Shown here: positions 23,611 to 60,665 of the stretch, piece after piece
How the letters are laid out: each line of letters opens with the position of its first letter
Position numbering within the stretch: position 1 is the first letter of the stretch
From: Heterodontus francisci
Lineage: Eukaryota
Reading direction: 5' to 3'
Assembly: GCF_036365525.1 (NCBI RefSeq)
Contig: NC_090399.1
Coordinates: 67,078,862-67,142,861 of the forward strand
Length of the DNA: 64,000 nt
Notes under the pieces: generated by a model
Databases searched by the model: none
Told to the model about the DNA's origin: nothing
What the model saw: the letters and a program-made list of their open reading frames with translations, nothing else
Program-made: the position numbers and the translations under genes

Positions 23611-23986
23611 ATCCTCCTCTTCTTCCTCCTTCTCCTCGTCTCCTCTTCTTCTTCCTCCTCCTCCTCTTCTCCTCTTTTCCTCCTCCTCCTCTTCTCCTCT
23701 TTTCCTCCTCCTCCTCTTCGCCTCCTCCTCTCCTCCTCTTCTTCCTCCTCTTTTCCTCCTCCTCCTCTTCTCCTCCTTTTCTCCTCCTCTTCTCCTCCCC
23801 CTCTTCCTCCTCCTCCTCTTCTCCTCCTCCTCCTCTTCGCCTCCTCCTNNNNNNNNNNNNNNNNNNNNNNNNNNNNNNNNNNNNNNNNNNNNNNNNNNNN
23901 NNNNNNNNNNNNNNNNNNNNNNNNNNNNNNNNNNNNNNNNNNNNNNNNNNNNNNNNNNNNNNNNNNNNNNNNNNNNNNNNNNNNNN

Positions 23987-26165
23987 CAGAGGTAGCCATT
24001 GAGTACCTGCTTCCCAGGGCTGCATTCTGCTGTTGGTGAGGTTATGAATGACCACTATGAAACTGGACACACGCTCTGTTGCGTTGTGGTGGGCTCCTCT
24101 TGCTCCCTCGCCTGCTCCTGGCAGCGGAACCGTTACTTCAGGGTGCCAATGGTTTACTCCATGACGTTCCTGGTGGCAGCATGGCTCCCACTGCAGGCAC
24201 CATGCCGTTGCCTGACTGGCAGTGGATGGGTGTCATTGCCCGGGTGTACAGCGGGTATCTCATCACCCAGCAGCCAGCCTCTGCTTTTTCATGGTGTCTC
24301 AAAGATGGCTGGTATGGCTGACTGCCGCTGGGTGAAGGTGTCTGGGCTGCTTCCAAGAGAGCAGGCATTCACTGAGAGGATCTTTCCATCATGTTCACAA
24401 ACTAACTGGAGCTGATAGAGCGGTAGCCTTTACAGTCATCCCCGTGAACATGTGGGGCCCACAGAGCCACATGTATACAGTCAATTGCTCCCTGCACATT
24501 GAGCATCTCCTCAGCCTGGCTAATCCACGTGCTGCCTCACTCTGCTTCTCTCTGGTCAGTGAGAAGACCATCGTCCCCTCTCTTTCTATACAGGCCGTCT
24601 GTCACCTCCCTGATACAGTGAAGGGTGGTGAACTGCGAGATGTTGCTGATGTCGCCTGTTCCCACCGGGAAGGATTCACTGACGTAGAAATTGTGGGTAA
24701 ATGTGACCTTAATGGCCAATGGCAGAGTCGACCTGTGAGAACAAAGAGTACAGCACAGGAACAGGCCATTCGGCCCTCCTAGCCTGCGCCGATCTTGATG
24801 TCTGCCTAAACTAACACCTTCTGCACTTCCGGGGCCCATATCCCTCTATTCCCTTTCTATTCATGTATTTGTCAAGATGTCTCTTAAATGTCGTTATCGT
24901 ATCTGCTTCCACCACCTCCCCTGGCAGCAAGTTCCAGGCACTCACCACCCTCTGTGTAAAGAACTTGCCTCGCACATCCCCTCTAAACTTTGCCCCTCTC
25001 ACCTTAAACCTATGTCCCCTAGTAACTGACTCTTCCACCCTGGGAAAAAGCTTCTGACTATCCACTCTGTCCATGCCGCTCATAACTTTGTAAACCTCTA
25101 TCATGTCACCCCTCCACCTCCGTCGTTCCAGTGAAAACAATCCGAGTTTATCCAACCTCTCCTTATAGCTAATGCCCTCCAGACCAGGAAACATCCTGGT
25201 CAACCTCTTCTGTACCCTCTCCAAAGCCTCCACATCCTTCTGGTAGTGTGGCGACCAGAATTGCACGCAATATTCTAAGTGTGGCCAAACTAAAGTTCTG
25301 TACAGCTGCAGCATGACTTGCCAATTTTTATACTCTATGCCCCGACCGATGAAGGCAAGCATGCCGTATGCCTTCTTGACTACCTTATCCACCTACGTTG
25401 CCACTTTCAGTGACCTGTGGACCTGTACACCCAGATCTCTGCCTGTCAATACTCCTAAGGGTTCTGCCATTTACTGTATACTTCCCACCTGCATTAGACC
25501 TTCCAAAATGCATTACCTCACATTTGTCCGGATTAAACTCCATCTGCCATTTCTCCACCCAAGTCTCCAACCGATCTATATCCTGCTGTATCCTCTGACA
25601 ATCCTCATCACTATCCGCAACTCCACCAACCTTTGTGTCGTCTGCAAACGTACTGATCAGACCAGCTACATTTTCCTCCAAATCATTTATATATACTACA
25701 AACAGCAAAGGTCCCAGCACTGATCCCTGCGGAACACCACTAGTCACATCCCTCCATTCAGAAAAGCACCCTTCCACTGCTACCCTCTGTCTTCTATGAC
25801 CGAGACAGTTCTGTATCCATCTTGCCAGCTCACCTCTGATCCTATGTGAGGTTGGAGGTCAAGTTGTAGGAGGTGGCACAGTTCAGTCACCACCTGCTTG
25901 GTGAAACCCACGCACCTTGCCCACTGCTCCTGCTGCAATGGAGGCTGCAGAATTGCTCCCTAAAAATCCTCGGTGTGTTGGGCCTTCTATTGAGAGCCCT
26001 CTCCATCATCATTCTGCAGAGAACTTCCCCTGGCAGACTGAGCTCCATTTCCAAATCATTCTGCAGCTCAGGAGGGCCTGCAGCTATCGCCCCCACTACT
26101 TTAGCAGACTTTCCCTCGACAGGGCTGCAAACTCCTCTGACCTCCTCGGCAGGATCCAGCATCGC
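23987..26165 (-). pseudogene. PIF/Harbinger (HARBI1-like) DDE transposase pseudogene, split by a CR1 insertion
   Basis: Minus-strand motifs RALNRRPNTPRIFREQF, VVTELCHLLQLDLQP|HRSTLPLAIKV..GDISNISQ..CIREVTDGL, QGAIDCIHV (24468-24494), WLLGDE, NVME*TIGTLK*RFRC, IHNL; has stops and frameshifts; 5' limit approximate. Confidence 0.88.
24740..25844 (-). mobile_element. CR1 LINE, 5'-truncated (~1.1 kb), same subfamily as the fragments in the 3.3-kb unit
   Basis: RT motifs GVPQGSVLGPLLF and FADDTK; C-terminus HLEYCVQFWSP; flanked by TGTGAG at 24734-24739 and 25845-25850; removing it restores the Harbinger frame DLQPHRSTLP. Confidence 0.95.
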
Positions 26166-27113
26166 TCCCTTGACGATCTAAAGAGGTAGCAAAACTCCTC
26201 CGAGAACACATCACACGTCAACTAACTCGGCACGAGCAGAGTTAAGTCAAAACCCCCTCACCTGTAAGTTGCAGGGGAAGGGGTGGTGGGGGGGGGGGGG
26301 GGGGGGGTTCCTCGTACAGCTGAACCCATGTGATTATGACAGGGTGTTAACTGGACCTGTGTGCTCCAAAATGGCAGACCATGTGGCAAATCATTGCCGT
26401 GAACATCTGCCCAATTCTGCACACTTATATTGAACACACATCCGTCAGAACGCGCCATGCAGAGCTTCTGTAGCACTGGCACCTGCAGTGTTACCGAAAC
26501 CAATTTCATGGGAATTTTATCTGCACCGTTACGACGCTGGATCTTATTGTTACACAGGGGATGATACAAGCTGAAATAACAGGTCTAAACAAACCATCTA
26601 CAGCAACAATCATCACACATTGTTCACACTCCCTTCACAAAGTGAACCTGTTCATATCTTCTACTTGACCACATTCACTCTGAGATAGATCAGCCAGTTC
26701 GTCCCAGTCAGTGCAGATCCTTTTCCTTCACTGAAACTGCTTGTACAACCTCCTGTCTCAAACTGACCCAGTTTACAAACCTATTGTGATGTCTCATCTC
26801 ACTGTGAGGGTCAGTGTGAGGGTCAGGCTTGTCCTGTGATCACAGGCTTTGAGCTGTCCAGTTAAAGGGGCCTCAGCTTGGGCTGCTTGGCTTTGAATCG
26901 AACCTTGTTTTTTTTTTCCTTTATTTTTGATTCCTAATCAGAGAGCAGCCAACCCCATTTTTTTTTCTTTTTTGTTTTCCAAGGTGGCTTTTATACCCCA
27001 GGCCCCTTTTATATTTTTCATGTCAAGGGGGCCTTTATTCCTCAGGCCCCCTTTATATACATAATTAAATTTTTTAAATAACTTTATTAAAAACAGATAA
27101 ATAAACAGAAAAC

Positions 27114-30100
27114 TCAAATTAAAATGCCATTCTCGGCGTCGACAATGCACTCCAGTCCCTGCGGTGCCCACCGGTCGCGGAAGGCCTCAACCGTACCGGC
27201 GGACACCGCATGCTCGTTCTCCAGGGACACCCGGGCGCGAACGGAACCGCGGAAGAGGGGCAGGCAATCGGGGAGGGCGGACCCCCCTGATGGCCCGCAA
27301 CCTGGACCTGTTAATTGCCACCTTGGCCTGGCCCAGAAGCAGACCGACGAGCAGATCCTCCTCCCATCCCATGCACTCCCTCACCGGGTGCCCAAAGATC
27401 AGGAGCGTGGGACTGAAGTACAGCCAGAACTTGAGGAGCAGCCCCTTCAAATACTCAAAGAGGGGCTGCAACCTCGCACACTCCGTATAAACGTGGAACA
27501 CAGACTCGTCCAGGCCGCAGAAAGTACAGGTGGCCTGGGAGTCCATGAAAAGTCTATTGCACGGGACTGCCCTGTGCAACACCCTCCACCCCAGGTCCCC
27601 AAAGTAAAGGGGGAGGACTCCCGCGTAGAGAGACCTCCATCGGGGTTTCCCCTCGCCGCCAGATGGTAACGCGGTCCGCCAGGGCATGTCTGGCCGGCTG
27701 ACGAGGGCCAGGAAGTGGAGAGTGTGTAGTAGCAGCCCGTACAGGAAACCCCTCCGCACCGATTGGAATGGCATGGAGGGCATTTCCGAAAGGCGGCTCG
27801 GGTTGTGCGGCACCGGCTCCCGAGGAGGGTTTCGGGGCCTGGGTTCGATGAGCAGTGAGGGGCCACCCGCAGTGAGGGGCGTCCCGGGGACTTCGGCTAC
27901 TCCTCCGCCCGCCGGTCCGACCCGGAGTCGGCCGCCCGGACAGCCGAGGCGCTCTCCTCCGCCGGCGGGGGAGCGCCCTGACTGGAGGCGACCATGTTCC
28001 AGACTCGGAAAAGATCCCGGTAAAAGACAGGCAACTCCCTCAGAGAGGCGCGGCTAATGGACTCCGCCGGGAGCTGCGTGTCGTCTTGAAGGCAGTGACA
28101 CTGGCGGAAAAAATACGTCTCCAGCGCACACCATCTAGGAGGACGCTCGACGTACAGGTATCTCTGCAGGGTCCGAAGGCGGAGAGTCGTAGCCGGGGTG
28201 AGGACGCACACCAGCGACTGGCCGCCCTCCTCAATCGGGAGACTCAGGACCGCGGCTGAGACCCAGTGTTTCCTCTTGCCCCAGAAGAAATTGACAAGCT
28301 TCTTCTGGATCTTGGTGGCAAATACAGGGAGCGGGGCCAAAGTGACCAACCGGTACCACAACATGGAGGCCACCAGTTGGTTTATGACCAGCGCTCGGCC
28401 CCTGTAGGAAAGCACTTGGAGCAGTCCTGTCCAGCGCCCCAGCCGAGTGGTGACTTTTGCCTCCAACTCCTGCCAGGCTTCCTCAGCGGGGCTAAGGTGG
28501 ACTCCCAGATAGAGGAGGTGCATGGTGCTCCACTCAAAAGGTGTCATCTCCTCCGGCAGGGAGTCCACCCGCCACTGACCCACCAGGAGTCCGGAACATT
28601 TTTCCCAATTGATCTTCGCGGAGAAAAGGTCTGCTGGCAGTCGCGCATCCTCCGCAAGTCAACGGGATCTGTGACCGCGAGGAGCACGTCGTCGGCGTAA
28701 GCCGAGAGGACGACCCGCATGGCCAGCTCGCGCAGAGCCAATCCCGTCAACCTCCTGCGAAGCAGGCACAGGAAGGCCTCCACGCAGATGGTATACAATT
28801 GGCCGGACATGGGGCATCCCTGACGCACTCCTCTCCCAAAGCGAAGGGGCACCGTCAAGGCGTTAACCTTGATTGGACACTCTGCGGCGGCGTATAAAAG
28901 TCGGACCCGGGCCACTAAATGCGGCCCGAGTCCGAAAGCGCGCAGAGTCCCGAAAAGGTATTCGTGATCCAACCTGTCGAACGCCGTCTCCTGATCGAGG
29001 GAGAGAAAGGCGACCGACTGACCAGTCCTCTGGGAAAGATGGATCAGGTCCCGGACCAGGTGGATGTTGTCCTGGATGGCCAGGACCGTGTAAGACTGGT
29101 CAGGGTGGATCATGTGGGCCAGCACGGAGCCCAGGCGGGTAGACATAGCCCGGGCAAAGATCTTATAATCTGTGCTGAGGAGGGAGACCGGACGCCAGTT
29201 TTTAAGCAGGTGGAGATCGCCCCTCTTCAGCAGCAGGACGAAGACCGCCCTGCGCCACGAGAGGGGCATCTCCCCGGTCGCCAGGCTTTCCCCCAGGACC
29301 TGTGCGTAATCTTCCCCCAGGACGTCCCAGAACGCCCTGAGGAACTCCACGGTCAACCCATCCAGCCCTGGGGATTTGCCCCTCGAGAGCTGGTGGAGGG
29401 CGCCAGTCAGCTCCGCCAACGTGAGCGGAGCCTCCAATCCTTCGGCGCCCTCCGGGCTGACCAGCGGCAGGTCCTCCCACAAAACTCTGCGCGCATCCTC
29501 GCTGGACGGATTCGGAGAGAACAATGCACTGTAATAAGTACGGATCAGGAGGCCCATTCCCTTGGATCTGTGATGGAGGATCCGTCGTCGGCCAGCAGCT
29601 CGATGAGCTGCTTACGGACCCCCCGCCATTTTTCCAGCGTGTAGAAGAAGGGTGAGGCGCGGTCCAAATTTTCCAGGATCTGGATCCGCGACCTCACGTA
29701 CGCGCCTCGGGACCCTATGAGCTGCAGGTCCCTCAGCGCGCCCTTCTTCTCTTTGTACACCTGCCACAGGGCCGGGTCCACGACGGCATGACCGAGGCGG
29801 GACTCCAAGTCGAGCACCTCCCTCTCAAGGCGCCCGATCGCGGCCTCCCGCCTCTTGGTCGACCCCTTCGCGTACTCCTGACAGAAGACGCGGATGTGAG
29901 TCTTGCCCACATCCCACCATAGCCTCAAGGAGGGGAAGCCCCCCTGCTTCCTACTCCAGTCGGCCCAGAATCGACGGAACGAGTCCCGAAATCCTTCGTC
30001 CTCCAGCAGCCGGTTGTTAAAGTGCCAGTACACGGACCCCGCCCGCGTGCAGAGCGGAGTGGACCCCGCCCGCGTGCGGAGCGGAGTAAACTCCGCCCAC

Positions 30101-30788
30101 ATCAGGTGGTGGTCCGAGCACGGCACCAGCCGCATGGAGGCCGCCGAGATACGGGAGACGTACGCTTGCGAAAAGTAGAGGCAGTCGATTCAGGACCCTC
30201 CTCCTCCAGACCTCCATGTGAAGGCGCTGGAGTTGAGATGGAGATTCCGCCAGATGTCCACCAAGTTGAGGGAGCAGATCAGTTTACTCAACTTCTCCAC
30301 CGATGTCTGGCCCCGCTGGGGACCGGAGCGATCCCCCACCTCGAGGGTGTTTTTAAAATCCCCCCCCCGAGGATAATGCACTCGCCGCTATCGATGGAGC
30401 TCAAGAGAGCGGACACTTCTTCAAAGAAGCGCGCTTGCAACGCGCCAGGCCTGGGCGCGTACACGTTCACAAAGTGGAGCGGCATGCTACCCAGGCGAAC
30501 GGCGAGGTGGAGCAAGCGGCTCGGCACTAGCTCCTTGACCCCCAAGATCTCCGGCTGAAAAGTCGGGGCCAACAAGATAGCCACCCCAGTAGAAATAGGG
30601 GTGAGGTGACTCATGTAGACCCCACCCTGCCACTCCAGGAGCCAGGTAGCTTCGTCTCCCGGAACGGTGTGGGTTTCCTGCAGAAAGCTCACCGCGTATC
30701 TCCCTTCCCTGAGGACTGAGAGATTGTGAAATCTGCGGTGAGACCCCCTGCTGCCGTTGATGTTGAGGCTGGCTATGGTTATCTTCAT
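27114..30788 (-). pseudogene. Tx1 ORF2 (APE endonuclease-reverse transcriptase), frameshifted
   Basis: MKITIASLNINGSRG..FLQETH, SDHH, WHFNNRLL, KSPGLDGLTVEF, WRPVSLLSTDYKI, GVRQGCPMS, YADD, CTFCGLDESVFHVYTEC, spread over several frames. Confidence 0.92.
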
Positions 30789-30820
30789 GTCAAAGGTACT
30801 TAAAACCCGTCACCAACACC

Positions 30821-32858
30821 TCACTGTGAGGAGGGATTGGAAGTGCACCTGGCCTTCCACTCCCCCAGCAACCCATTGAGGAACACATTAAAACGGCGCC
30901 TCTCAACCAGTTTCACGTCCGTGCCCTTGCCCGCTTTCTTGAGGGCGGCACGGACGGACTGAATGATTAGCGCCAGACATGAGCAACGGCTGAGGGCCAG
31001 CTGAACTTTATTGCGGCAACTCCTGCATGCCGCGTGGAAATCCCGGAGTTCTGCCGTGGGGATGAGAGGAGACTCGGTGGGAGGAACGAGGGACTCCACC
31101 ACCTCACTGGCGATGGAATCAAGGTCATCCTCCGTGCCCCACACCGAATCCCCATCCTCCTCCGGAGGTCATCACGGCCAGCGGCCGACCCACCCACCAC
31201 ACACTGTGGGACGGAAGTCCCGGCCGCGCCAATTGGTCCCGCCTCCGTCACGATCCCACCCCCAGGATCGATGGCGGAGGAGTCCTTTCTGGGTTCTACT
31301 GTGAAACTGGTGTCTGTGGGCGGCAGCGGTTCAGGACCCCCCTCCACCTCCGTCCCCAGGCCAATGAGCGGTCCAGGGGAGACAGAAGTTCACGACTCCG
31401 GAAATCCAGCCGGAGCCGAGACCGGAGGCGGAGACAGCATCCACAGGCCCAGCAGATGGGGCAGCATTTTCAGCTATAACCAGGTCGGGTGTCTCCTGGT
31501 TGTCAGTGGTTTCTGGCTGGGAGGGTCGACCCTTTGGGGACTCGTCCTCCCCTCCACTCAGGGCACCCGACCCAATGGCAAAATGGGAGGCTTCTCCAGA
31601 AGCATCCCCAGACTCCCCCACCACAATTAGGGCTTTACTTGCTCCCACAGGAGGGGCTGCATGTAGAGGAGCCTCCCCCTCCCCTCCATCCTGAGGAATA
31701 GGGAGCTCCTGCCCAGACTTTGCAGCCTTGATGGTGGTGGTGGCAGGGAGAACCTGGGGACCTGAAATAGGAGACAGCTCCCCTCCAACAGATGGGCCCT
31801 GCACCTCAGGGCCCTGTGTTACCTCTGTGGAGCGGTGCCTTCTCCTCTTTTTCCCGCTAGGGCGCAGAGGCTCAGAGACCTCCATGCCATCAGAGGCCTC
31901 CGCCTCCGTCTCCGTACCCTCCTTTTTTTTAGTTACTCTGGGCCTGAGACCAGCCCTGGGACAGGTGGAATCTCATTGGAGCAGGCCTTGGGCTGAACCC
32001 AGGCTCGGGTTGTGTCATGGCGTCCAGGGGACGAGCCTCTCGGTGTTTACTTTTCCTCCGCGCCTTCCTTCCACTTGGACGGGCACTGCCCTCCCCGCTG
32101 GAGGCTGTGAAAACCACAGCCTCTGGAACCGACTGAGTGATGTATGTTGGATGTGAGGGGGGAGTGGGAGGAGGTGCAGTGGCGCCACTCTGGGCCGCCG
32201 AGGTGGAACTGGCGGCCGGGAGGTTGGGGCAGTTCTTACGAACATGCCTCACCCCCTTGCAGACGTGGCACCGCGCACCGTCCGAGGTCCAAAGGACGCG
32301 GTAGGCCGTCCCCTGGAACTCCACACTGAAGTGGCCCTCCAAGACCTCCTCCCGCACCAGCTGCATAAATACCTGGCGGCGGAAGGAGTAGACATGTCGG
32401 AGGCTGTGCTCCCGAAGACCGAGCGGGACTGGGGTGATCCCTGACCTCACCTCCCCCAGATGGTGCAGGTGGGGGAGGAGAAGCTCACTGGGAATGAAGG
32501 GAAGGATGTTTGATAACATTATCCGCTGTGCAGTGGCCCCCAGAGAGTCCACCGGCAGGAAAGTCCCACCCACAGTGAGCCCTTTACTCAGGGCCAGGGA
32601 CACGGCCCACTCGGTCTTCAGGAAGAACACAGCCTTCACACAGTACATTTTTGAGGCTGCCACAATGGCCGAGGGGCCGACAACCTCGGCCATCGCCTTT
32701 ACACAGGCCTCTATAGACATATTGGGGTGGGGATAGCTCTTTACCTCATGACTCGAAGTAATTAATTTGAAAGGTGACGGGGTCACATGGGTGGCCACAG
32801 AGGCTACAGCCGCATAGTTATGAGAGGGCCCCGCCACCGGTGATGATGGGCTTGCCAT
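30821..32858 (-). pseudogene. Tx1 ORF1 (gag-like nucleic-acid-binding protein), frameshifted
   Basis: MASPSS..VGPSAIVAASKM..AVFFL..SNILPFI..SFRRQVFM; CX2CX4HX4C knuckle CHVCKGVRHVRKNC; ends 32 bp before the ORF2 ATG. Confidence 0.88.
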
Positions 32859-33530
32859 GGCTCAAGAGCCAAACCCACCCCAAAATTGTGGGCTTGCACA
32901 CTGAACAACAAAAGATTCACAGAAGATATTGAATATGTATTAAAAAAAAACAAACAACAGGTTAGGGGAGAGGCTGAGGGAATAGAGGAGAGGTAACGAC
33001 AGATGGTAAGGGATGACTTGCTTTTTGGAGGTGGTGCTCACAGCACACTTGAAACAGTCTTTGCACTTGGTCTTCCAGTCTTCTGGTTGGGGGAGGCGTC
33101 TTCACCTGGGTCAGCTGAAGCTGCCCAGACACTATCTATCACCTTCCAACTGTTTAGCCAGGCAGCTTCAGCTGACCCAGGCTGGGCAATTGGGGTGGGG
33201 AGGGAGCTTCCCTGTGTGCTTGTTGCAGCAGCACAGATTCCTGCTGAATTGGCAGCCCCACCCCTTGATGTTCTGGGCACTTGTTCCTCCCCCAGCAGTC
33301 CAAAGTAAATTACTGGTGTTCAGCAAACACCTCCAGACAAAGCCTTGTTTCCAACAAAAAGTATCTCTTTCTTCTCTTTAATGGTGATTGTTGTTGAAGC
33401 TTTCCCTCTGCTTGGTTGTAACTGCTATCCCTTGCTCAGTGCAGCTCCTTCTCTCCACCTCCGCCACCAGCAGTCTCAGCTGAGGCTCGTTGCTGCAATC
33501 AGCAGTCAACACTTGAATTAGCCAGCAGCC

Positions 33531-33606
33531 AACCCATGATGCGTATGCCCGAGGAGTGTTTGATGGGGACAGTTTAGAGGGAGCTTTATTCTGTATCTAA
33601 CCCCCG
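33531..33606. repeat. Single (partly degenerate) monomer of the ~70-bp minisatellite separating the two Tx1 copies
   Basis: GGAGTGTTTGATGGGGACAGTTTAGAGGGAGCTTTATTCTGTATCTAACCCCCG matches the units at 40235-40520. Confidence 0.88.
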
Positions 33607-33847
33607 TTTTTTTTTCAAAGGTTTTTGCAGTTTCTCCTCAGCTCTCCCTCTCCAGCAGCACCTCCAGCAACTGACTGCAGCACTGTCAGCTGCACCTTGT
33701 TGCTGCACTCAACATTCAGAGAGCAGCGAACCCCATTTTTAAAAATATTTTTCACGTCGACGGGGCCTTTATTCATCAGGCCCCCTTTATATACATATTC
33801 ACAGTTTTAAAATAACTTTATTAAAACCAGATAAATAAACAAAAAAC

Positions 33848-36800
33848 TCAAATTAAAATGCCATTCTCGGCGGCGACGATGCACTCCAGTCCCTGTGGTG
33901 CCCACCGGTCGCGGAAGGCCTCAAACGTACCGGCGGACACCGCATGCTCCTTCTCCAGGGACACCCGGGCGCGAACGTAACCACGGAAGAGGGGCAGGCA
34001 ATCGGGGAGGACGGACCCCCCGACGGCCCGCAACCTGGACCTGTGAATTGCCACCTTGGCCAGGCCCAGGAGCAGACCGACGAGGAGATCCTCCTCCCGG
34101 CCCAAGCCCCTCCGCACCGGGTGCCCAAAGATCAGGAGCGTGGGACTGAATTGCAGCCAGAATTTGAGGAGCAGCCCCTTCAGATACTCAAATAGGGGCT
34201 GCAACCTCGCACATTCCGTATAAATGTGAAACACGGACTCGTCCTGGCCGCAGAAAGTACAGGCAGCCTGGGAGTCCGTGAACCTACTTAAAAGCCTATT
34301 GAACGGGACTGCTCTGTGCAGCATCCTCCACCCCAGGTCCCCGATGTAAAGGGGGAAGACTCCCGCATAGGGAGACCTCCATCGGGGTTTCCCCTCGCCG
34401 CCAGATGGCAACGCGAACCACCAGGGCGTGTCCGGCCGGCTGACGAGGGCGAGGAAGTGGAGAGTGTGCAGGAGCAGCCCGTACAGGAAACCCCTCCGCT
34501 CCAATTGGAATGGCACAGAGGGCATTTCCGAGAGGCGGCTCAGGTTGTGCGGGACCGGCTCCCAAGGAGGGTTTCGGGGCCTGGGTCCGATGAGCAGTTC
34601 CGGCCGAGCGGGTGTCAGCTCGGCCGGGATCGCTCCACACTCCCGAGCCCCTTCGCCACCCGCAGTGAGGGGCGTCCCACGGGTTTCGGCCAGTCCTCCG
34701 CCTGCCGGACCGTCCCCGGAGTCGGCCGCCCGGACAGCCGAGGCGCTCTCCTCCGCCGGCGGGGGAGCGCCCTGACTGGAGGCGACCATGTTCCAGACTC
34801 TGAATAGTTCCCGGTAAAAGACAGGCAACTCCCTCAGAGAAGCGCAGCTAATGGACTCCACCGGGAGCTGCGTGTCGTCTTGAAGGCAGAGACACTGGCG
34901 GAAAAAATACGTCTCCAGCGCACACCATCTGGGAGGACGCTCGACGTACAGGTATCTCTGCAGGGTCCGAAGGCAGAGAGTCGCAGCGTGGGTGCGGACA
35001 CACACCAGCGACTGGCCGCCCTCCTCCATCGGGAGACTCAGGACCGCGGCAGAGACCCAGCGTTTCCTCTTGCCCCAGAAGAAATCGACGAGTTTCTTCT
35101 GGATCTTGGTGGCGAATACAGGGGGCGGGGCCAAAGTGACCAACCAGTACCACAGCATGGAGGCCACCAGTTGGTTTATGACCAACGCTCGGCCCCTGTA
35201 GGAAAGCACTCGGAGCAGTCCTGTCCAGCGCCCCAGCCGAGCGGTGACTTTCGCCTCCAACTCCTGCCAGTTTGCCGGCCAGGCTTCCTCAGTGGGGCTA
35301 AGGTGGACTCCCAGATAGAGGAGGTGCGTGGTGCTCCACGCAAAAGGTGTCATCTCCTCCAGCAGGGAATCCACCCGCCATTGACCCACTAGGAGTCCGG
35401 AACATTTCTCCCAATTGATCCTCGCAGAGGACGCGGCAGAAAAGGTCTGCTGGCAGTCGCGCATCCTCCGCAAGTCAACAGGATCTGTGATTGCGAGGAG
35501 CACGTCGTCGGCGTAAGCCGTGAGGACGACCCGCATGGCCGGCTCGCTCAGAGCCAATCCCGTCAACTTCCTGCGAAGCAGGCACAGGAAGGGCTCCACG
35601 CAGATGGTACACAATTGGCCGGACATGGGGCATCCCTGACGCACTCCTCTCCCAAAGCGAAGGGGCACCGTCAAGGATTCATTAACTTTGACTAGACACT
35701 CTGCGGCGGCGTATAAAAGTCGGACCCGGGCCACGAGTCCGAAAGCGCGCAGAGTCCCGAAAAGGTATTCGTGATCCACCCTGTCGAACGCATTCTCCTG
35801 ATCGAGGGAGAGAAAGGCGACCGACTGACCAGTCCTCTGGGAAAGATGGATCAGGTCCCGGACCAGGTGGATGTTGTCTTGGATGGGATGGACCGGCCCG
35901 GGACCATGTAGGACTGGTCGGGGTGGATCATGTGGGCCAGCACGGAGCCCAGGCGGGTAGACATAGCCCGGGCAAAGATCTTATAATCCGTGCTGAGGAG
36001 GGAGACCGGAAGCCAGTTTTTAATCAGGCGGAGATTGCCCCTCTTCAGCAGCAGGACGATGACCGCCAGGCTTTCCCCCAGGACCCGTGAGTAATCGTCC
36101 CCCAGGATGTCCCAGAATGCCCTGAGGAACTCCACGGTCAACCCATCCAGCCCTGGGGATTTGCCCCTCGAGAGCTGGTGGAGGGCACCAGTCAGCTCCG
36201 CCAATATGAGCGGAGCCTCCAATCCTTCGGCGCCCTCCGGGCTGACCTGCGGCAGGTCCTCCCACAAAACTCTGCGCGCATCCTCTCTGGACGGATCCAG
36301 AGAGAACGCACTGTAATAAGTACGGAACAGGAGGCCCATTCCCTCCGGATCCGTGATGGAGGATCCGTCGTCGGCCAGCAGCTCAATGAGCTGCTTACGG
36401 ACCCCCCGCCATTTTTCCAGCAAGTAGAAGAAGGGTGAGGTGCGGTCCAAATCTTCCAGGATCTGGATCCGTGACCTCACGTACGGGCCTCAGGACCCTA
36501 TGAGCTGCAGGTTCACTCAGCGCGCCCTTCTCTTTGTACACCTGCCACAGGGCCGGGTCCACGACGGCATGACCGAGGCAGGACTCCAAGTCGAGCACCA
36601 CCCTCTCTCGGCGCCCGATCTCGGCTTCCGGCCTCTTGGTCGACCCCTTTGCGTACTCCTGACAGAAGACGCGGGTGTGAGTCTTGCCCACATCCCACCA
36701 TAGCCTCAAGGAGGGGAAGCCCCCCTGCTTCCTTCTCCAGTCGGCCCAGAATCGACAGAACGAGTCCCGAAATCGCTCGTCCTCCAGAAGTTGGTTGTTA

Positions 36801-37545
36801 AAGTGCCAGTAAGCGGACCCCGCCCGCGTGCGGAGCGGAGTGAACTCCGCCCACACCAGGTGGTGGTCCGAGCACGGCACCAGCCGCATGGAGGCCGCCG
36901 AGACGTGGGAGACGTACGCCTGCGAAAAGTAGAGGCGGTCGATTCGCGACCCCCCTCCTCCAGACCTCCACGTGAAGGCGCTGGAGTCGGGATGGAGATT
37001 CCGCCAGACGTCCACCAAGTTAAGGGAGCTGATCAGTCCTCTCAACCTCTCCACCGACGCTTGGCCGCGCTGGGGACCGGAGCGATCCCCCACCTCGAGG
37101 GTGCAGTTAAAATCCCCCCCGAGGATGATGCACTCGCCGCTTTCGATGGAGCTCAAGAGAGCGGACACTTCTTCAAAGAAGCGCGCTTGCAACGGGCCGG
37201 GCCGGGCCTGGGCGCGTACACGTTCACAAAGTGGAGCGGCACGCTACCCAGGCGAACGGCGAGGTGGAGCAAGCGGCCCGGCACTAGCTCCTTGACCCCC
37301 AAGATCTCCGGCTGAAAAGTCGGGGCCAACAAGATAGCCACCGCACTAGAAATAGGGGTGAGGTGACGCATGTAGACCCCACCCTGCCACTCCAGGAGCC
37401 AGGTGGCTTCGTCTCCCGCAACGGTGTGGGTTTCCTGCAGAAAGCTCACCGCGTATCTCCCTTCCCTAAGGACTGAGAGATTGTGAAATCTGCGGTGAGA
37501 CCCCCTGCTGCCGTTGATGTTGAGGCTGGCTGTGGTTATCTTCAT
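33848..37545 (-). pseudogene. Tx1 ORF2 (APE-RT-Zn), frameshifted; C-terminal 643 aa uninterrupted
   Basis: MKITTASLNING, GGDFN, SRIDRLY, SDHH, YADD, YLGV, CTFCGQDESVFHIYTEC. Confidence 0.93.
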
Positions 37546-37577
37546 GTCAAAGGTACTTAAAACCCGTCACCAACAGC

Positions 37578-39604
37578 TCACTGTGAGGAGGGAGTGGAAG
37601 TGCACCTGGCCCTCCACTCCCCCAGCAACCCATTGAGGAACACATTAAAACGGCGCCTCTCAACCAGTTTCACGCCCGTGCGCTTGCCCGCTTTCTTCAG
37701 GGCGGCACGGATGGACTGTATGATCAGCGCCAGATTCGACCAACGACTGAGGGCCAGCTGAACTTTATTGCGGCAACCCCTGCAAGCCGCGAGGAAATCC
37801 CGGAGTTCCGCCGTGGGGATTCGGTGGGAGGCACGAGGGACTCCACCACCTCACTGGTGATGGAATCAAGGTCATCCTCCGTGCCCCACACCGAATCCCC
37901 ATCCTCCTCCGGGTCGTCACCGCCAGCGGCCGACACATCCACCACACACTGTGGGGCGGACGTCCCGGCCGCGCCAGCTGGTCCCGCCTCCGTCACGATC
38001 CCACCCCCAGGATCGATGGTGGAGCAGTCCTTTCTGGGTTCTACTGTGAAACTGGAGCCTGTGGGTGCCAGCAGTTCAGGACCCCCCCTCCACCTCCATC
38101 CCCAGGGCAATGAGTGGTCCAGGGGAGACAGAAGTTCCGACTCCGGAAATCCAGCCAGAGCCGAGACTGGTGGAGGAGGAGAGAGGAGGCCATCTCCAGC
38201 TCCACCAGCACCCACAGGCTCAGCAGATGGGGCAGCATTCTCAGTTATAACCGGGTCGGGTGTCTCCTGGTTGGTGGTGGACTCCGGCTGGGAGGGCCGA
38301 CCCTCTGGGGCCTCGCCCTCCCCTTCACTCAGGGCACCCGACCCAGTAGCAATGGCAGAATGGGCGGCGTCCCCAGGCTCCCCCACCACAAGCAAGGCCC
38401 CACTTACTCCTTCAGGAGGCGCCTCAAGTACCGGGGCCTTCCCCTCCCCTCCATCCTGAGGAATAGGGTGCTCCTGCCTGGACTTTGTAGCCTTGTTGCT
38501 GGCGGAAGGGGAAACCTGGGGACCCGAAACAGGAGACAGCTCCCATCAAACAGATGGGCCCTGCGCCTCAGGGCCCCTCGTTACCTCAGTGGAGGGGTGC
38601 CTTCTCCTCTTTTTCCCACTAGGGCGCAGAGGCTCAGAGACATCTGTGTCATCAGAGGCCTCCGCCTCCTCCTTCTTTTTAGTCACCCTGGGCCTGAGCC
38701 CAGCCCTGGGACAGGTGGATTCCGTGAGAACGGGCTTTGGGCTGAGCTCAGGCTCAGGTTGTTTCAATGTGTCCAGGGGACGCGCCTCTTGATGTTTCTT
38801 TTGCCTCCGTGTCTTCCTTCCACACGGACGGGCTCTCCCCTCCCCGCTGGAGGCTGTGAAAACCACAGCCTCCGGAACCGACTGAGCGGTGTCTGTTGGA
38901 TGTGTGGTGGGAGTGGGAGGAGGTGCTGTGGAACCACTCTGGGCCGCCGAGGTGGAGCTGGCGGCCAGGAGGTTGGGGCAGTTTTTACGAACATGCTTCA
39001 CCCCCGTGCAGACGTGGCACGCGCCCCGTCCGAGGTCCAAAAGACGCGGTAGGCCGTCCCCTGGAACTCCACATTAAATTGGCCTTCCAAGTCCTCCTCC
39101 CGCGCCAGCTGCATAAATACCTGGCGGCGTAAGGAGTAGACATGTTGGAGGCTGTGTTCCCGAAGACCCAGCCGGACTGGGGTGATCCCTAACCTCACCT
39201 CCCCCAGATGGTGTAGATGGGGGAGGAGGAGCTCACTGGGAATGAAGGGTGGGACGTTTGATAACATTATCCGCTGCGCAGTGGCCCCCAGAAGGTCCAC
39301 CGGCAGGAAGAATCCCCCCACAGTGAGCCCCTTACTCAGGGCCAGGGACACGGCCCGCTCGGTCTTTAGAAAAAACACAGCCTTCCCATACATCTTTGAG
39401 GCCGCAACAATGGCCGAGGGGCCGACAACCTCGGCCATTGCCTTCACACAGTCCTCAATGGACATGTTGGGGTGGGGATAGCTCTTCACCCCATGGCTGG
39501 ATGTTATTAATTTAAAGGGTGACGGGGCTACGTGGGCAGCCACAGAGGCTGCAGCTGCATAGGTTGTAGAGGGCCCCGCCACCTGTAATGAAGGGCTTGC
39601 CAAT
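37578..39604 (-). pseudogene. Tx1 ORF1, frameshifted, ATG lost (TTG at the homologous position)
   Basis: ASPSLQVAG..AASKMYGKAVFFL..SNVPPFIP; CHVCTGVKHVRKNC knuckle. Confidence 0.87.
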
Positions 39605-40234
39605 TGTCTAAGAGCTAACCCACCCCAAATTGTAGGCTTGAAAATAACTTTAAGATGCACAAAACAAACAAACAACAGGTTAGGGGAGAGGCTGAGGGAA
39701 TAGAGGAGAGGGAAAGACAGGCTGTCAGGGATGACTTTCTTTTCCTTTCTGGAGGTGGTACACACAGCACACTTGAAACAGTCTCTGCCAGCACACGGTC
39801 TTCCGGTCTTCTGGTTGGGGGAGGCGTCTTCACCTGGGTCAGCTGAAGCTGCCCAGGCACTATCTATCACCTTCCAACTGTTTAGCAGGGCAGCTTCAGC
39901 TGACTCAGGCTGGGCAATTGAGGTGGGGAGGGAGCTTCCCTGCAACTTTAGTGCAACTGCACAGCTCCCTGCAGAATTGTATAGCCCCCACCCCTTGTTC
40001 TTCTGGCCTCTTCCACCTCCCACAGCAGACCAAATGAAATGAGTCTGGTGCTCAACACCCACCTCGAAATACAGGCTTATTCCAAAAGTCTCTCCTCCTC
40101 TGCAGCAAATGTTGTTCAAAGTTTTTACAGCTTCTCCTCAGCTCTCCCTCTCCAGCAGCACCTCCAGCAACTGACTGCAGCACTGTCAGCTGCACCTCAT
40201 TGATGCACTTTGGAGTCCCAATTAGGAAGCAGCC

Positions 40235-40525
40235 AACCCCAGTGCTGTACCTGTCCTGGGCAGTGTTTGATGGGGGACAGTGTAGAGTTTGCTTTACTCT
40301 GTATCTAACCCCCGTGCTGTACCTGTCCTGGGGAGTGTTTGATGGGGGACAGTGTAGAGTTTGCTTTACTCTGTATCTAACCCCCGTTTTTTTTTTTTCT
40401 TTTTGTAGAGGGAGCTTTACTCTGTATCTAACCCCCGTGCTGTACCTGTCCTGGGAGTGTTTGATGGGGGACAGTGTAGAGTTTGCTTTACTCTGTATAT
40501 AACCCCAGTGCTGTATCTGTGCTGT
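40235..40525. repeat. ~70-72-bp minisatellite (about 4 units), the apparent Tx1 target
   Basis: Unit AACCCCCGTGCTGTACCTGTCCTGGGAGTGTTTGATGGGGGACAGTGTAGAG(TTTG/GGAG)CTTTACTCTGTATCT; starts at 40235, 40307, 40379, 40430, 40501. Confidence 0.93.
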
Positions 40526-40691
40526 AACATGTGGGCTGGCAGTTGTTGTGCCGAGCTGATTATCGGAATCTCTCTGCCTGTGTCGGGGTGTGGAGGAGGA
40601 GGGACAGGGACAGGGGTGGGGCAGCTGCTGGAATCTGTGGTTTAGGCAGTGCAGCAGAGCAGTGAGCTGTGAAAGGAGCTGCAGATTTGCG

Positions 40692-40769
40692 ATGGCCAGC
40701 GATCCTCGGAAGATCCAATTCACGGAACCAGTGCTGGATTTAGGGCTGGACCCACGGATGGCGGAGCAG
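40692..40769 (+). CDS. PPP1R1A: First coding exon of a protein phosphatase 1 inhibitor-1/DARPP-32 family gene (PPP1R1A-like)
   Basis: MASDPRKIQFTEPVLDLGLDPRMAEQ resembles the inhibitor-1 N-terminus (SPRKIQFTVPLLEPHLDPEAAEQ), including the KIQF PP1-docking motif; followed directly by a phase-0 donor CAG|GTAACG; good Kozak context GCGATGG. Paralog assignment (1A vs 1B/1C) is tentative; later exons not found in the window. Confidence 0.78.
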
Positions 40770-40959
40770 GTAACGGGATCATTCCCAGCACGACCACAGC
40801 ATATAGAACACACACTCGTGGCTAGCAAATAGATTTTAAAAAGAACTGAAGTCTGTGTTTCAATGGTGTCATATGTGATTTACTTAAACTTGGGACATTT
40901 TCTGCTTCTCCATCCTCTGGGCCAAGTAAATGTTTCTCTCTGTTCACACTTTTTAATTA

Positions 40960-41290
40960 GATAGAGAGGAACAGTTTCCAGTGGCAGGAGGGTCAGTCAC
41001 CAGAAGACACAGATTTAAGGTCATTGGTAAAAGAACTGGAGAGGACATGAGGAACAATTTGTGTTCCGCAGTCAGTTGTTGTGATCTGGAACGCGCTGCC
41101 TGAAAGGGCAGTGGAAGCAATTCAATAGGAACCTTCAAAAGGGAACTAGATAAAGTCTCAAAGGGGGAAGATTTACAGGACTGTGGGGGAAGAGGAGGTA
41201 AGTGGTTTTTATTGGACAGCACTTTCAACGAGCCAGAAGCAGCATAGTGGGCCGAATGACCTCCTTTTGCTCTGTGTGATTCTCTGATTG
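40960..41290 (+). mobile_element. Old CR1 3' fragment
   Basis: GGGTCAGTCACCAGAAGACACAGATTTAAGG..TGGAACGCGCTGCCTGAAAGGGCAGTGGAAGCA..GGGCCGAATGACCTCCTT tail. Confidence 0.8.
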
Positions 41291-43534: not shown

Positions 43535-44706
43535 TGAGGAGGATAGTAGCTGAATCCAGGAGGACATAGACAGACCGGAAAATTGGGCAGATGAAGTTTA
43601 ACGCAAAGAATCGTGAAGTGATGCATTTTGACAGGGGGAATGAGGAGAGACAACATGAAAGAAATGGAACAATATTAAGGTGGGTGCAGGAGTAGGGAAA
43701 CTGGAAGTGTACTTAGATAAATCTTTCAAACTGGCAGAGCACGTTGTGAAGGCTGGGAAAACAAGGTGTGTCCTTCGCTTTATAAATGGGCGAATGGAGT
43801 ATAAAAGGCAGGCACTTAAACTAAACCTTTATAAAATAGTGGGTAGGTCTCAGCTGGAAGATTGTACCCAATTCGACACCACACTCTGAGGAGGGAAGTC
43901 AAGGCCTGAGAGAAGGTGCAGAGGCTGATTACTAGACTGGTTCTAGGAAGGAAAGGCTTCAGTTCCTGGCAAGATGAGTGAAACCAGGATTGTTCTCCTC
44001 AGAACAGAGAAGGTGAAGAGGAAAGGAGATTTGATAGGGACTTTCAAAATAATGAAGGGCTCTTACAGAGCAGGGTTGTCCAAACTTTTTGGGCCGAGGG
44101 CCGCGTTATAATTTTTGCTCGGCCCAAAGGGGCCGGTGAGCAAATTTCGAAAGATAAAGGCACTAAAAATTTATTGTATTACTAAAAACAGCAAGAAATG
44201 GGCATTTTTGTGAAGAAGCTTTAAATGAGAAGTCTAATTTCACAGCTGACAACTGCCGACATTGGGAACAGTCGTTTCCCAACCGACTCGGGATTTTCCG
44301 GCGTGCTTTTTGAAAAAAAACTCAGAACCTACTGGAAAACCCCTAGTCCGTTGGGAAACGACTGTTCCCAATGTCAGCAGCTGTCAGCTGTGAAACTGAC
44401 GGCGATCTTTTTAAAAAGGCCACTCTAAGAGGAAGACGACAAGAGGAAATTTTCCATCTCCAGTCACGGTGAGGACGAGGAATGGCCCCAGGAACAGTTT
44501 ACACCCGCGGGCCGAATGGAAACGTTTGGCAGGCCGGATTCTGGCCTGTGGGGACAACTGTGTTATTGAGTCAATCAGGGGAAACAGGTTCCATCGACAG
44601 AAGAGTCGGTAACCGGAAGGACACAGAATAAAGGTAAATTACAAACAAGTCCGAGGTGAAGTGAGGAAAGATTTTTGACAGCAAATTTTTATGATCTGGA
44701 ATGCTA
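43535..44706 (+). mobile_element. Old degraded CR1 ORF2 3' part, interrupted by a hAT MITE
   Basis: QEDIDR..QMKFNAK..EVMHF, MEYKRQALKLNLYKIVGRSQLEDCTQF, FKIMKG, resuming after 44570. Confidence 0.78.
44071..44562. mobile_element. Non-autonomous hAT (Charlie-like) MITE with an internal inverted repeat
   Basis: Left TIR CAGGGTTGTCCAAAC, degenerate right TIR GGACAACTGTG, imperfect 8-bp TSD TTACAGAG/TTATTGAG, subterminal GGGCCG motifs. Confidence 0.72.
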
Positions 44707-46085: not shown

Positions 46086-46546
46086 GTGGGGAAGAGGAGT
46101 GAAAGGTGGAGGGGAGTGAGAGGGAAGGGGTGGTAAGGAGTGTGGAGGGGGAAGCAAGGGGGAGGAGAGACTGAGGGAGGAGGTAGAGAGAGGCAGAAGG
46201 GCTAAGGGAAAGTGGCAGACAGGAATGAGGGGAGGAGACAGTGGAATGGAGAAGGAGGGAAGGACAGTGGAGGTGGAGGATTGAAAGAGGGTGAGGAGGA
46301 GGAGGGGAAGAAGATGAGAGGAGAGAGGGGCAAAATGGTAGAGAGCAAAAGGGAGAGGAGAGGAGGAACAAGGGGGAGAGGATGGGGGAGACGGAGAGAG
46401 GTGGAGGGGAAGGTGAGAGGGGGGAAAGTGGGGAGGAGGAGGAGAGGAGATGTGGAGAGAGAAGAAGGAGAAAGGAGGGGAGAGATGAGGAAGAGAGGGC
46501 AGAGGGAGAGATAAGAGGAGGAGAGGGGAGGTGGAGAGGAGAGGAA
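46086..46546. repeat. G/A-rich polypurine low-complexity tract
   Basis: Almost only G/A on +. Confidence 0.9.
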
Positions 46547-47660
46547 GTACTGAGGGCAGACTGCATTATCGGACAGTGAGTACTGAATGCATTCTGCACT
46601 GTCAGTGGGTCAGTACTGAGGTAGTGCTGCATTTTCAGAGGTTCAGTGCTGAGGGAGCCCTGCACTGTCAGGGTCAGTACTGAGGGAGTGCTGCACTGTC
46701 GGAGAGTCAGTGCTGACGGAGTGCTGCACTGTCGGAGGGTCAGTACTGAGGGAGTGCTGCACTGTCGGAGGGTCAGTACTGAGGGAGTGCTGCACTGTCG
46801 GAGAGTCAGTGCTGACGGAGTGCTGCACTGTCGGAGGGTCAGTACTGAGGGAGTGCTGCACTGTCGGAGGGTCAGTACTGAGGGAGTGCTGCACTGTCGG
46901 AGGGTCAGTACTGACGGAGTGCTGCACTGTCGGAGGGTCAGTACTGAGGGAGTGCTGCATTGTCGGAGGGTCAGTACTGAGGGAGTGCTGCACTGTCGGA
47001 GGGTCAGTACTGAGGGAGTGCTGCACTGTCGGAGGGTCAGTGCTGACGGAGTGCTGCACTGTCGGAGGGTCAGTACTGACGGAGTGCTGCACTGTCGGAG
47101 GGTCAGTACTGAGGGAGTGCTGCATTTTCGGAGGGTCAGTACTGAGGGAGTGCTGCACTGTCGGAGGGTCAGTACTGAGGGACTGCTGCACTGTCGGAGG
47201 GTCAGTACTGACTGAGTGCGGCACTGTCGGAGGGTCAGTACTGAGGGAGTGCTGCACTGTAGGAGGGTCAGTACTGAGGGAATGCTGCCCTTTCGGAGGG
47301 TCAGTACTGAGGGTGTGCTGCACTGTCGGAGGGTCAGTACTGAGGGAGTGCTGCACTGTCGGAGGGTCAGTACTGAGGGAGTGCTGCACTGTCGGAGGGT
47401 CAGTACTGAGGGAGTGCTGCACTGTCGAAGGGTCAGTACTGAGGGAGTGCTGCACTGTCGGAGGGTCAGTACTGAGGGAGTGCTGCCCTGTCGGAGTGTC
47501 AGTCCTGAGGGAGTGCTGCCCTGTCGGAGTGTCAGTCCTGAGGGAGTGCTGCCCTGTCGGAGGGTCAGTACTGAGGGAGTGCTGCCCTGTCGAAGGGTCA
47601 GTACTGAGGGAGTGCTGCACTGTCGGAGGGTCAGTACTGAGGGAGTGCTGCACTGTTGGA
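46547..47660. repeat. 33-bp minisatellite GGAGGGTCAGTACTGAGGGAGTGCTGCACTGTC (~30 clean units plus degenerate left units)
   Basis: Direct tandem repetition with an 11-codon period in the ORF track. Confidence 0.97.
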
Positions 47661-47912
47661 GGTGCCATCTTTCAGCTGAGACATTAACCTGTCTGTCCTC
47701 CCAGGTGCTGGTAAAAAAACCCACGGATACTATTCTAAGTATAAGATACTAAAACAAATGAGATGATGATTAGCACATTGCTATGTTTGGAATCTTACTA
47801 TATGCAAATTGGTTGCTGAGTTTCCTAAAACGTAACAGTGATGACATTTGCAAATTAGTTCACTTCCTGTAAAACACTCTGGCATGTCTTGTGATAAGGA
47901 AAGCTCTGAGAT
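47628..47912 (+). mobile_element. DeuSINE (SacSINE1/AmnSINE-like) remnant
   Basis: AGTACTGAGGGAGTGCTGCACTGTTGGAGGTGCCATCTTTCAGCTGAGACATTAA (recalled Deu-domain start) and 3' part CACATTGCT..GCAAATTGGTTGC..AACAGTGA..TGTAAAACACT. Confidence 0.7.
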
Positions 47913-60435: not shown

Positions 60436-60665
60436 AAAAGCAAAATACTGCGGATGCTGGAAATCTGAAACAAAAACAAGAAATGCTGGATTCACTCAGC
60501 AGGTCTGGCAGCATCTGTGGAAAGAGGAGCAGAGTTAACGTTTCGGATCAGTGACCCTTCTTCGGGTGTTCCGAAGAAGGGTCACTGATCCGAAACGTTA
60601 ACTCTGCTTCTCTTTCCACAGATGCTGCCAGACCTGCTGAGTGAATCCAGCATTTCTTGTTTTTG
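60436..60665. mobile_element. 230-bp palindromic non-autonomous element (Penelope-like 3'-end/pLTR-derived) with a 17-bp TSD
   Basis: Arms 60471-60565 and 60571-60665 match at 94/95; TSD TCCCGGGTATCTGATAT at 60419-60435 and 60666-60682; empty site at 51752-51768. Confidence 0.8.

Follow-up and report, generated by a model that had tools for sequence, protein, structure and literature searches.

Tx1-clade LINEs stacked at one phase of a 72-bp minisatellite in Heterodontus francisci, a probable insertion target

We analyzed a 64,000-nucleotide stretch of the Heterodontus francisci genome (NCBI RefSeq assembly GCF_036365525.1, contig NC_090399.1, positions 67,078,862 to 67,142,861 of the forward strand), which we call the window and number from its first letter. 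An array of a 71-72-bp repeat, ~0.4 kb in extent, hosts two minus-strand long interspersed nuclear elements (LINEs), copy 1 and copy 2. It had been predicted that these are Tx1-clade retrotransposons targeting one position in the minisatellite monomer (referred to below as the original prediction). We find it probable that the locus arose by endonuclease-guided insertion at a fixed monomer site, with head-to-tail stacking and 3' read-through, and that the minisatellite is a new target of a known kind.

Without the two LINEs the array is short (394 bp, ~5-6 units). Read on the plus strand, the composite opens with a degenerate monomer end and a degenerate core, AACCTTG, which form the 3' flank of copy 1 (26881..26907; 18/27 matches to the four-C monomer end, and the matrix score given below). 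T10 and a 33-nt tag follow; on the minus strand the tag resembles an element head (GGCTGC...) and carries an outer poly(A) of 10 (26908..26950, assigned by likeness to the copy-2 head and tag). An internal core, AACCCCA, comes next, followed by copy 1's internal poly(A), which on the plus strand reads T9-C-T6 (26951..26973, recognized in the sequence and by likeness to 33716-33740), and by the copy-1 body. Copy 1 (26908..33530, minus strand; delimited by tblastn and Pfam) comprises a 5' untranslated region (UTR), open reading frame (ORF) 1 (~30888-32858), ORF2 (~27114-30788) and a 3' UTR. In the middle of the composite, a single degenerate spacer monomer of the GAGGGAGC type (33531..33606, with AATAAA on the element strand) is bounded by the cores AACCCA (33531) and AACCCCCG (33599). 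T9 and a 113-nt tag, again an element head, with an outer poly(A) of 9 (33607..33728, minus strand; likeness to the copy-2 head), precede a second internal core AACCCCA and the decayed internal poly(A) of copy 2 (33729..33752; AATAAA lies 17 nt before 33750 on the element strand). Copy 2 (33607..40234, minus strand; tblastn, Pfam and the reverse transcriptase (RT) tree) contains ORF1 (~37645-39603) and ORF2 (33848-37545), the latter with an apurinic/apyrimidinic endonuclease (APE) domain, the RT motif YADD and a C-terminal CCHC motif. On the right, the core AACCCCAG marks the copy-2 5' junction and begins two 72-bp monomers of the GAGTTTGC type (40235..40378; Tandem Repeats Finder (TRF) period 72, matches 97%). 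A third insertion, the 40387 insert, consists of AACCCCCG, an 18-nt T-tract, a 25-nt monomer end of the GAGGGAGC type and a second AACCCCCG, which form a perfect 8-bp duplication (40379..40437). The last full monomer and a partial one end the array (40430..40525).

Xenopus Tx1L ORF2 aligns by tblastn with copy 2 in four frame segments (44-53% identity, residues 1-1292 of 1308) and with copy 1 in six (40-59% identity, most of ORF2 covered). With this coverage in several frame segments and one in-frame stop per copy, both copies are dead yet full length. Pfam detects Exo_endo_phos (the APE endonuclease), RVT_1 and zf-RVT in ORF2. No Pfam family matched the ORF1 pieces; translation reveals a CCHC zinc knuckle (C-x2-C-x4-H-x4-C) in ORF1 of both copies, at 32229..32270 (minus strand) in copy 1 and beyond a frameshift in copy 2. 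A protein search for full-length relatives, limited to lengths of 1244-3550 residues, returned as named full-length matches only Tx1L and sea-turtle proteins (45%), a Tetraodon pol-like protein (33%) and a stingray gene model with a Tx1 RT. A stingray gene model, P0028 (XP_072896886.1), annotated as 'von Willebrand factor A domain-containing protein 7-like', corresponds in its first ~500 residues to ORF2 of the copies' Tx1 lineage and is probably a gene-model fusion. We calculated an RT phylogeny, which the original prediction had proposed as a check, from the two copies and 35 of the 36 retrieved proteins (P0001 was dropped for its short overlap; midpoint root, without a named L1-clade outgroup). 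The two copies group with the Hemitrygon (stingray) protein (71% over 304 residues, support 100/98), and this trio is sister to Tx1L and the turtle Tx1 proteins with joint support of 100/99. Both LINEs have poly(A) tails and no long terminal repeats (LTRs), and 7-8-bp cores are found at both ends of the insertions; the paired cores match perfectly around the 40387 insert but only imperfectly around either LINE. The 99-nt terminal repeat of copy 2 stems from its head-like tag and ends in poly(A); it is not an LTR. The APE-RT-CCHC organization of ORF2, the RT phylogeny, the ORF1 knuckle, and the poly(A) and short duplications thus support the predicted assignment of both elements to the Tx1 clade, on which tblastn, Pfam, protein relatives and the RT tree agree.

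An inverted repeat with ~21-nt arms is kept in the 5' UTR of both copies (33105-33181 and 39833-39909, minus strand) and is possibly a promoter or RNA hairpin. A 5' ribozyme or structured head was rejected, as shuffled sequences fold just as well as the heads and tags do (z -0.65 to +1.05) and Rfam returned no match at gathering level. A search for a third, diverged element to the left of copy 1 gave a best match of only E 0.69.

Five poly(T) junctions, at 26908, 26958, 33607, 33736 and 40387, all lie in one orientation; the junctions listed by the original prediction are present, and the total is five rather than three. The target core AACCC(C)R precedes all five, in degenerate form at 26901, so that at this single locus 5/5 tails sit at the core and point in the same direction. 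The 33606/33607 junction reads TCTAACCCCCG|T9 and the 40235 junction CAGCC-AACCCCAG-TGCTGTACC, both as predicted. The copy-1 head does join a degenerate monomer at 33531 (75-76% identical to the three right-hand monomers), the two elements lie exactly one monomer and one core apart (33531-33606), and the 40387 T-tract is in phase, two 72-bp monomers from 40235 by the TRF period. Motif and tract counts cover both strands of the window, that is 128,000 positions. The motif AACC[CT]1-3[AG], defined only after the junctions had been seen, occurs 215 times and precedes 5 of 98 tracts of T>=5, all five within the composite. The chance of three separate events falling at one phase of 72 is P ~2e-4 for exact coincidence and 2e-3 at +-1. 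Repeated independent insertion at one monomer phase, as originally proposed, is borne out at this locus by the same-phase tails and by the divergence of the copies described below.

The copy-1 3' flank had been called only weakly target-like, which understates it: it is monomer-like for 20 nt past the core. When scored with a monomer-end matrix, the 20 nt to the left of AACCTTG are outscored by 2 of 30,848 background positions; at matrix lengths of 15, 25, 30 and 40 nt the corresponding counts are 27/30,888, 19/30,808, 89/30,768 and 6/30,688. From its sequence, the flank is best read as an eroded array edge. These data bear on a different explanation, in which the family merely prefers the short motif AACCC..R^T, a chance insertion near an open promoter seeded the pile-up, and most genomic copies lie outside the minisatellite. 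In its favor, we have a single locus, whose array has a PPP1R1/DARPP-32-like first coding exon ~170 bp downstream, the 3' flank of copy 1 is degenerate, and weak target preferences occur among Tx1-mobilized elements (13-23% for SINEU-1/-2; PMC4494074). We nevertheless consider this explanation unlikely. Copy 1, copy 2 and the 40387 insert occupy three different monomers and did not re-use a single site, no tail is present at any of the 14 further AACCC+R+T motifs of the window (23 counting both strands, less 9 in the composite), and past its core the copy-1 flank stays monomer-like for 20 nt.

Each LINE end consists of the element's own poly(A), a core, the start of another element and a further poly(A). 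Over 99 nt, the tag of copy 2 (33611-33709) and the head of that copy (40112-40209) share 92.9% identity. Since only 12/26 of its first 26 nt match that head, it appears to derive from a different subfamily. The copy-1 tag shares 20/26 positions with the copy-2 head, and its first 13 nt are 12/13 identical to the copy-2 tag. Four different heads all start with (G/C)GCTGC directly after a core, and each records a 5' junction at the target. The tags could stem from transcripts that read through in a donor array, or from short insertions made separately at a regenerated site. The nested poly(A)s favor inherited read-through, as does an internal junction common to the two copies (24/25 nt around the core at 26951..26973 are identical to 33716-33740), but the absence of a good poly(A) hexamer from the tags does not. 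We lean slightly toward the tags being read-through products.

The 8-bp AACCCCCG duplication around the 40387 insert (40379/40430) is the sole perfect pair at the locus. The core was originally described as recurring like a short target-site duplication; this is accurate for that pair and not for the two LINEs, whose end cores are non-identical. The 25-mer of the insert matches the local monomers at 22/25 and 21/25 positions and the spacer monomer at 23/25, and it carries the GAGGGAGC variant, whereas the neighboring monomers are of the GAGTTTGC type. On the element strand, AGTAAA or AATAAA lies 8 nt past the core in all five intact monomer ends, and the poly(A) of the insert begins 11 nt after its AGTAAA hexamer. 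The insert is a candidate orphan 3' transduction, the product expected if a read-through cDNA were cut short at the core. We judge the chances of a read-through origin to be even, and those of a tail-only insertion or a deletion remnant to be similar; each of the three would require priming at one and the same bond. The observation behind the original prediction is confirmed, and it understates the case: the prediction missed the second poly(A), core and head of each copy, the duplication-flanked 40387 insert and the poly(A)-signal hexamer of the monomer.

An alignment of copy 1 with copy 2 (6750 columns) shows 86.8% identity, which is unevenly spread: the head reaches 65%, the remainder of the 5' UTR 86%, ORF1 89% and ORF2 94%. 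Between the copies, dN/dS is 0.50 in ORF2 (1170 codons, Fisher p 5e-6) and 0.22 in ORF1 (189 codons, Fisher p 2e-8). Had a dead copy been duplicated, the two would have diverged neutrally and at an even rate along their length; these values therefore show that the copies stem from different active lineages and represent separate insertions at equivalent bonds of different monomers. A single insertion multiplied by unequal exchange, segmental duplication or mis-assembly, its phase inherited and not chosen, would be compatible with the other large duplications in the window, with the assembly gap at ~23849-23986 and with the internal junction common to both copies. The signature of purifying selection and the uneven divergence largely refute it, and neither the four different heads nor the perfect duplication of the third insert fits it; we regard it as very improbable.

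A second tandem repeat in the window offers a specificity control. This 69-bp repeat (~167 copies, 48621-62650) has an end that resembles the 72-mer core, and its copies contain 109 AACCC+R sites and 21 extended look-alikes, none with a T-tract tail. The kinship score of 72-mer and 69-mer is reached by 20/500 shuffles. As only 1 of the 109 sites is followed by T, recognition probably includes bases to the right of the nick or an upstream stem-loop. Directly upstream of the nick site (40352-40377 and homologous positions), the monomer plus strand forms a stem-loop (z -2.33, 3/200 shuffles), and a TTTG/GGAG monomer variant sits exactly in its 4-nt loop. The 69-bp array itself is interrupted by an RT-encoding element (RVT_1) with a CATAGAA tail that is present twice (53739, 62653), and by a near-perfect 96-nt inverted repeat (60470-60666).

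The stem-loop with its variable loop, as an RNA-derived piece might have, also leads to a different view of the target. The true target may be an older dispersed repeat, a short interspersed nuclear element (SINE) or a non-autonomous DNA transposon, of which the 72-mer is a tandemly amplified piece; the closest characterized relative does target a DNA transposon (PMC4494074). The case would parallel Tx1L in Tx1D and Tx1-Mar in Mariner-N4, with the same mechanism and a change in the target label alone. We think this quite improbable, since the array flanks share no terminal inverted repeat or flanking duplication beyond short chance-level matches (best E 0.23) and no Rfam family reaches its gathering score. 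An array forming part of a DNA transposon was likewise rejected, as no transposon ends were found in the flanks.

Specificity in LINE endonucleases is set in part by a hairpin (PMC1950540, PMC1919474), and Tx1L is strictly site-specific through its endonuclease (PMC1950540). In a comparison of this loop, L1 is two residues longer than the elements studied here, whose loop equals in length the R1Bm loop grafted in PDB 2v0s. The proposal that the head is an inverted copy of the target was rejected, as 606-953/1000 shuffles score as well. Database searches for junction-spanning proteins, or for stray host DNA with a second junction, gave no support and do not count as evidence against specificity. 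A translated-head search returned 3 candidates, none at E<=10, and a second one 3 matches at E ~3e-5, which on inspection are unrelated repeat-rich proteins. A translated-monomer search yielded 1283 candidates, none at E<=0.001 and none junction-spanning; in a further one, which also found no junction-spanning protein, the best Atlas score was 0.82, a lead only. Scans of bacterial and archaeal genomes and plasmids contained no stray host DNA with a second junction.

In the mechanism that we propose, the APE endonuclease of a Tx1L-related LINE would nick the monomer plus strand at ...TCTGTATCTAACCC(C)CG^TGCTGTACC, the bond being ambiguous by one T; in short form, the endonuclease-guided insertion site would be AACCCCCG^TGCTG. 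Reverse transcription would be primed at this nick on the element poly(A), and closure would leave a 7-8-bp core duplication. With a core at both ends of each insertion, later copies could stack head to tail. Transcripts would often overrun the poly(A) site of their element. Where another stacked element follows, they would take up its head, which gives rise to the 3' tags; where a monomer follows, its AGTAAA/AATAAA, located 8 nt beyond the core, could serve as poly(A) signal and yield the 40387 insert. The element identity, the five same-phase poly(T) junctions, the separate ancestry of the copies, the nested poly(A)s, the 40379/40430 duplication and the hexamer positions are established by the data; that the endonuclease reads the site, that specificity extends to the whole family, that the tags and the 40387 insert are read-through products and that the hexamer is used is inferred. 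Insertion guided to a fixed monomer site is supported by the common phase of five tails, the unused look-alike cores and the Tx1L kinship at 100/99. Family-wide specificity would be an extrapolation from one locus and the behavior of relatives. A family has been counted as sequence-specific when >20% of its genomic copies are flanked by the same repeat (Kojima, PMC4494074); in the window, 2/2 copies are flanked by the 72-bp repeat.

Several findings weigh against this interpretation. The events, at most five and at least three, come from one locus only. The cores at the two ends of each LINE differ (AACCCCCG vs AACCCCAG; AACCTTG vs AACCCA), for which CpG decay and exchange between monomers could account. 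Taken by themselves, neither the APE part (p 0.12) nor the RT part (p 0.27) has a dN/dS significantly <1. No recognizable poly(A) hexamer is present within 60 nt in the copy-2 tag, and AATAAA lies only 2 nt before the tail in the copy-1 tag. The T-tract at 40387, T12-C-T5-G, is similar to the internal tail of copy 1, T9-C-T6-G, so that the insert may be tail-only or left by a deletion instead of a transduction. Finally, the endonuclease hairpin loop is WRSGGGG, glycine-rich and 7 residues long vs 11 in Tx1L, and because the loops differ the specificity of Tx1L is not simply transferable.

To the right, ~170 bp separate the array from what is probably the first coding exon of a PPP1R1/DARPP-32 (protein phosphatase inhibitor-1) family gene (40692-40769, plus strand), which starts MASDPRKIQF... 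and is followed by a GT donor; its Pfam match to PF05395 (E 2e-4) is under the gathering score, and a short motif scan found no later exons. The LINE stack thus lies head to head with the promoter region of this gene. An unrelated RT fragment (RVT_1; 24811-25858, minus strand) is located ~1 kb to the left of copy 1. Positions 1-23848 are occupied by a very long CT-rich (CTC/TCC) low-complexity array with a ~3.3-kb higher-order period and LINE-like fragments, which stops at an assembly gap (~23849-23986). Host sequence further to the right contains a 62-nt inverted repeat (92% complementary, 44238-44395), located inside what may be a small non-autonomous DNA transposon, and 34 copies of a 33-bp repeat (46546-47900) that continue directly into SINE-like sequence. 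We take the latter to resemble the shark Deu-domain SINE SacSINE1, which would suggest a minisatellite grown from a SINE segment, and we presume the neighboring repeats to be typical of sharks.

The original prediction regarded the target as undescribed. This is not contradicted in the literature searched, which contained no description of this minisatellite as a Tx1 target, no text combining Tx1, sequence-specific, non-LTR retrotransposon and minisatellite, and none with the 22-nt monomer string; Repbase and Kojima and Fujiwara 2004, outside this search, may name the family. The claim needs tempering, as satellites are already among the known Tx1 targets (PMC4494074, legend). The excerpts of PMC4640811, PMC5499810, PMC10620051, PMC4585706 and PMC7140322 contain nothing on this Tx1 family, and a term search of the zebra shark genome paper (PMC10620051) gave no mention of Tx1.

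The locus would add a ~72-bp minisatellite to the Tx1 target list, in a lineage that adjoins Tx1L and has a much shorter specificity loop, so that the two form a natural pair for studying target change in APE endonucleases. This one locus also illustrates how a site-specific LINE can stack and, through read-through, take its target along, which offers a testable path by which minisatellites may disperse. A more speculative idea, which we hold to be improbable, is that LINE and minisatellite form a self-reinforcing pair, the monomer serving as both landing site and poly(A) signal and the family seeding its own target arrays. If true, read-through transcripts would carry the target and explain the dispersal of the minisatellite through cartilaginous-fish genomes, and stacked heads and tails would shuffle 5' promoters between subfamilies. 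Nothing is overturned, target switching among repeats being the norm in the Tx1 clade.

Site-specific Tx1 families, satellite-targeting ones included, are already known, and targeting of repeats is the rule in the clade. Tx1L of Xenopus laevis (P14381) shares with our elements two ORFs, the APE-RT-CCHC organization, 62% identity over 304 RT residues, a strongly supported common branch and site-specific insertion into a repeat. It differs in its target, the Tx1D transposon, and in its 11-residue RDGH hairpin loop vs WRSGGGG (7) here. Its duplication is presumably longer than the 7-8 bp found here. Membership in the Tx1L family proper was rejected on the WRSGGGG loop and on the flanks, which are 72-bp repeats without transposon ends.

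Target preference is common in the clade, including Tx1D (Tx1L), U2 (Keno), microsatellites (Kibi, Koshi) and Mariner, Harbinger and LTR elements in crocodilians (PMC4494074). The microsatellite-, U2-, tRNA- or 5S-targeting types (Kibi, Koshi, Keno, Dewa, Mutsu) were rejected, as the flanks are 72-bp units and neither microsatellite nor small-RNA gene; an Rfam scan of 26000-41000 gave no match at gathering level, the best of 8 weak ones having E 0.12. In crocodilians, Tx1-Mar and SINEU-3 likewise place Tx1 machinery at a fixed repeat position, and tandem insertions sandwiching one duplication have been described for the Tx1-mobilized SINEU-3 (PMC4494074). They differ in their target, Mariner-N4_AMi, and in a 16-bp duplication, and Tx1-Mar groups with Keno (PMC4494074); their proteins lie outside our RT tree. 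The families labeled 'Sat, satellites' among the Tx1 targets (Fig. 3 legend, PMC4494074), compared here by that legend label only, share a tandem-repeat target longer than a microsatellite. The telomere-repeat-specific Tx1-1_ACar of the anole (PMC5537684, PMC10088271) is similar in that our core contains CTAACCC, as telomeric repeats do. Its RT matches copy 1 by eye at ~26/75 positions (~35%) vs 62% for Tx1L, and a telomere-specific Tx1 was rejected on this distance and because no telomeric array is found at the junctions. Nested poly(A) tails, a carried flank and 5'-truncated orphans are also known from L1, for which orphan 3' transduction has been described (PMC3812793). According to the same 2013 review, microsatellite mobilization by 3' transduction is conceivable but unreported. 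Unlike in L1, what is carried along here as flank would come from the target of the element itself or from the head of its neighbor.

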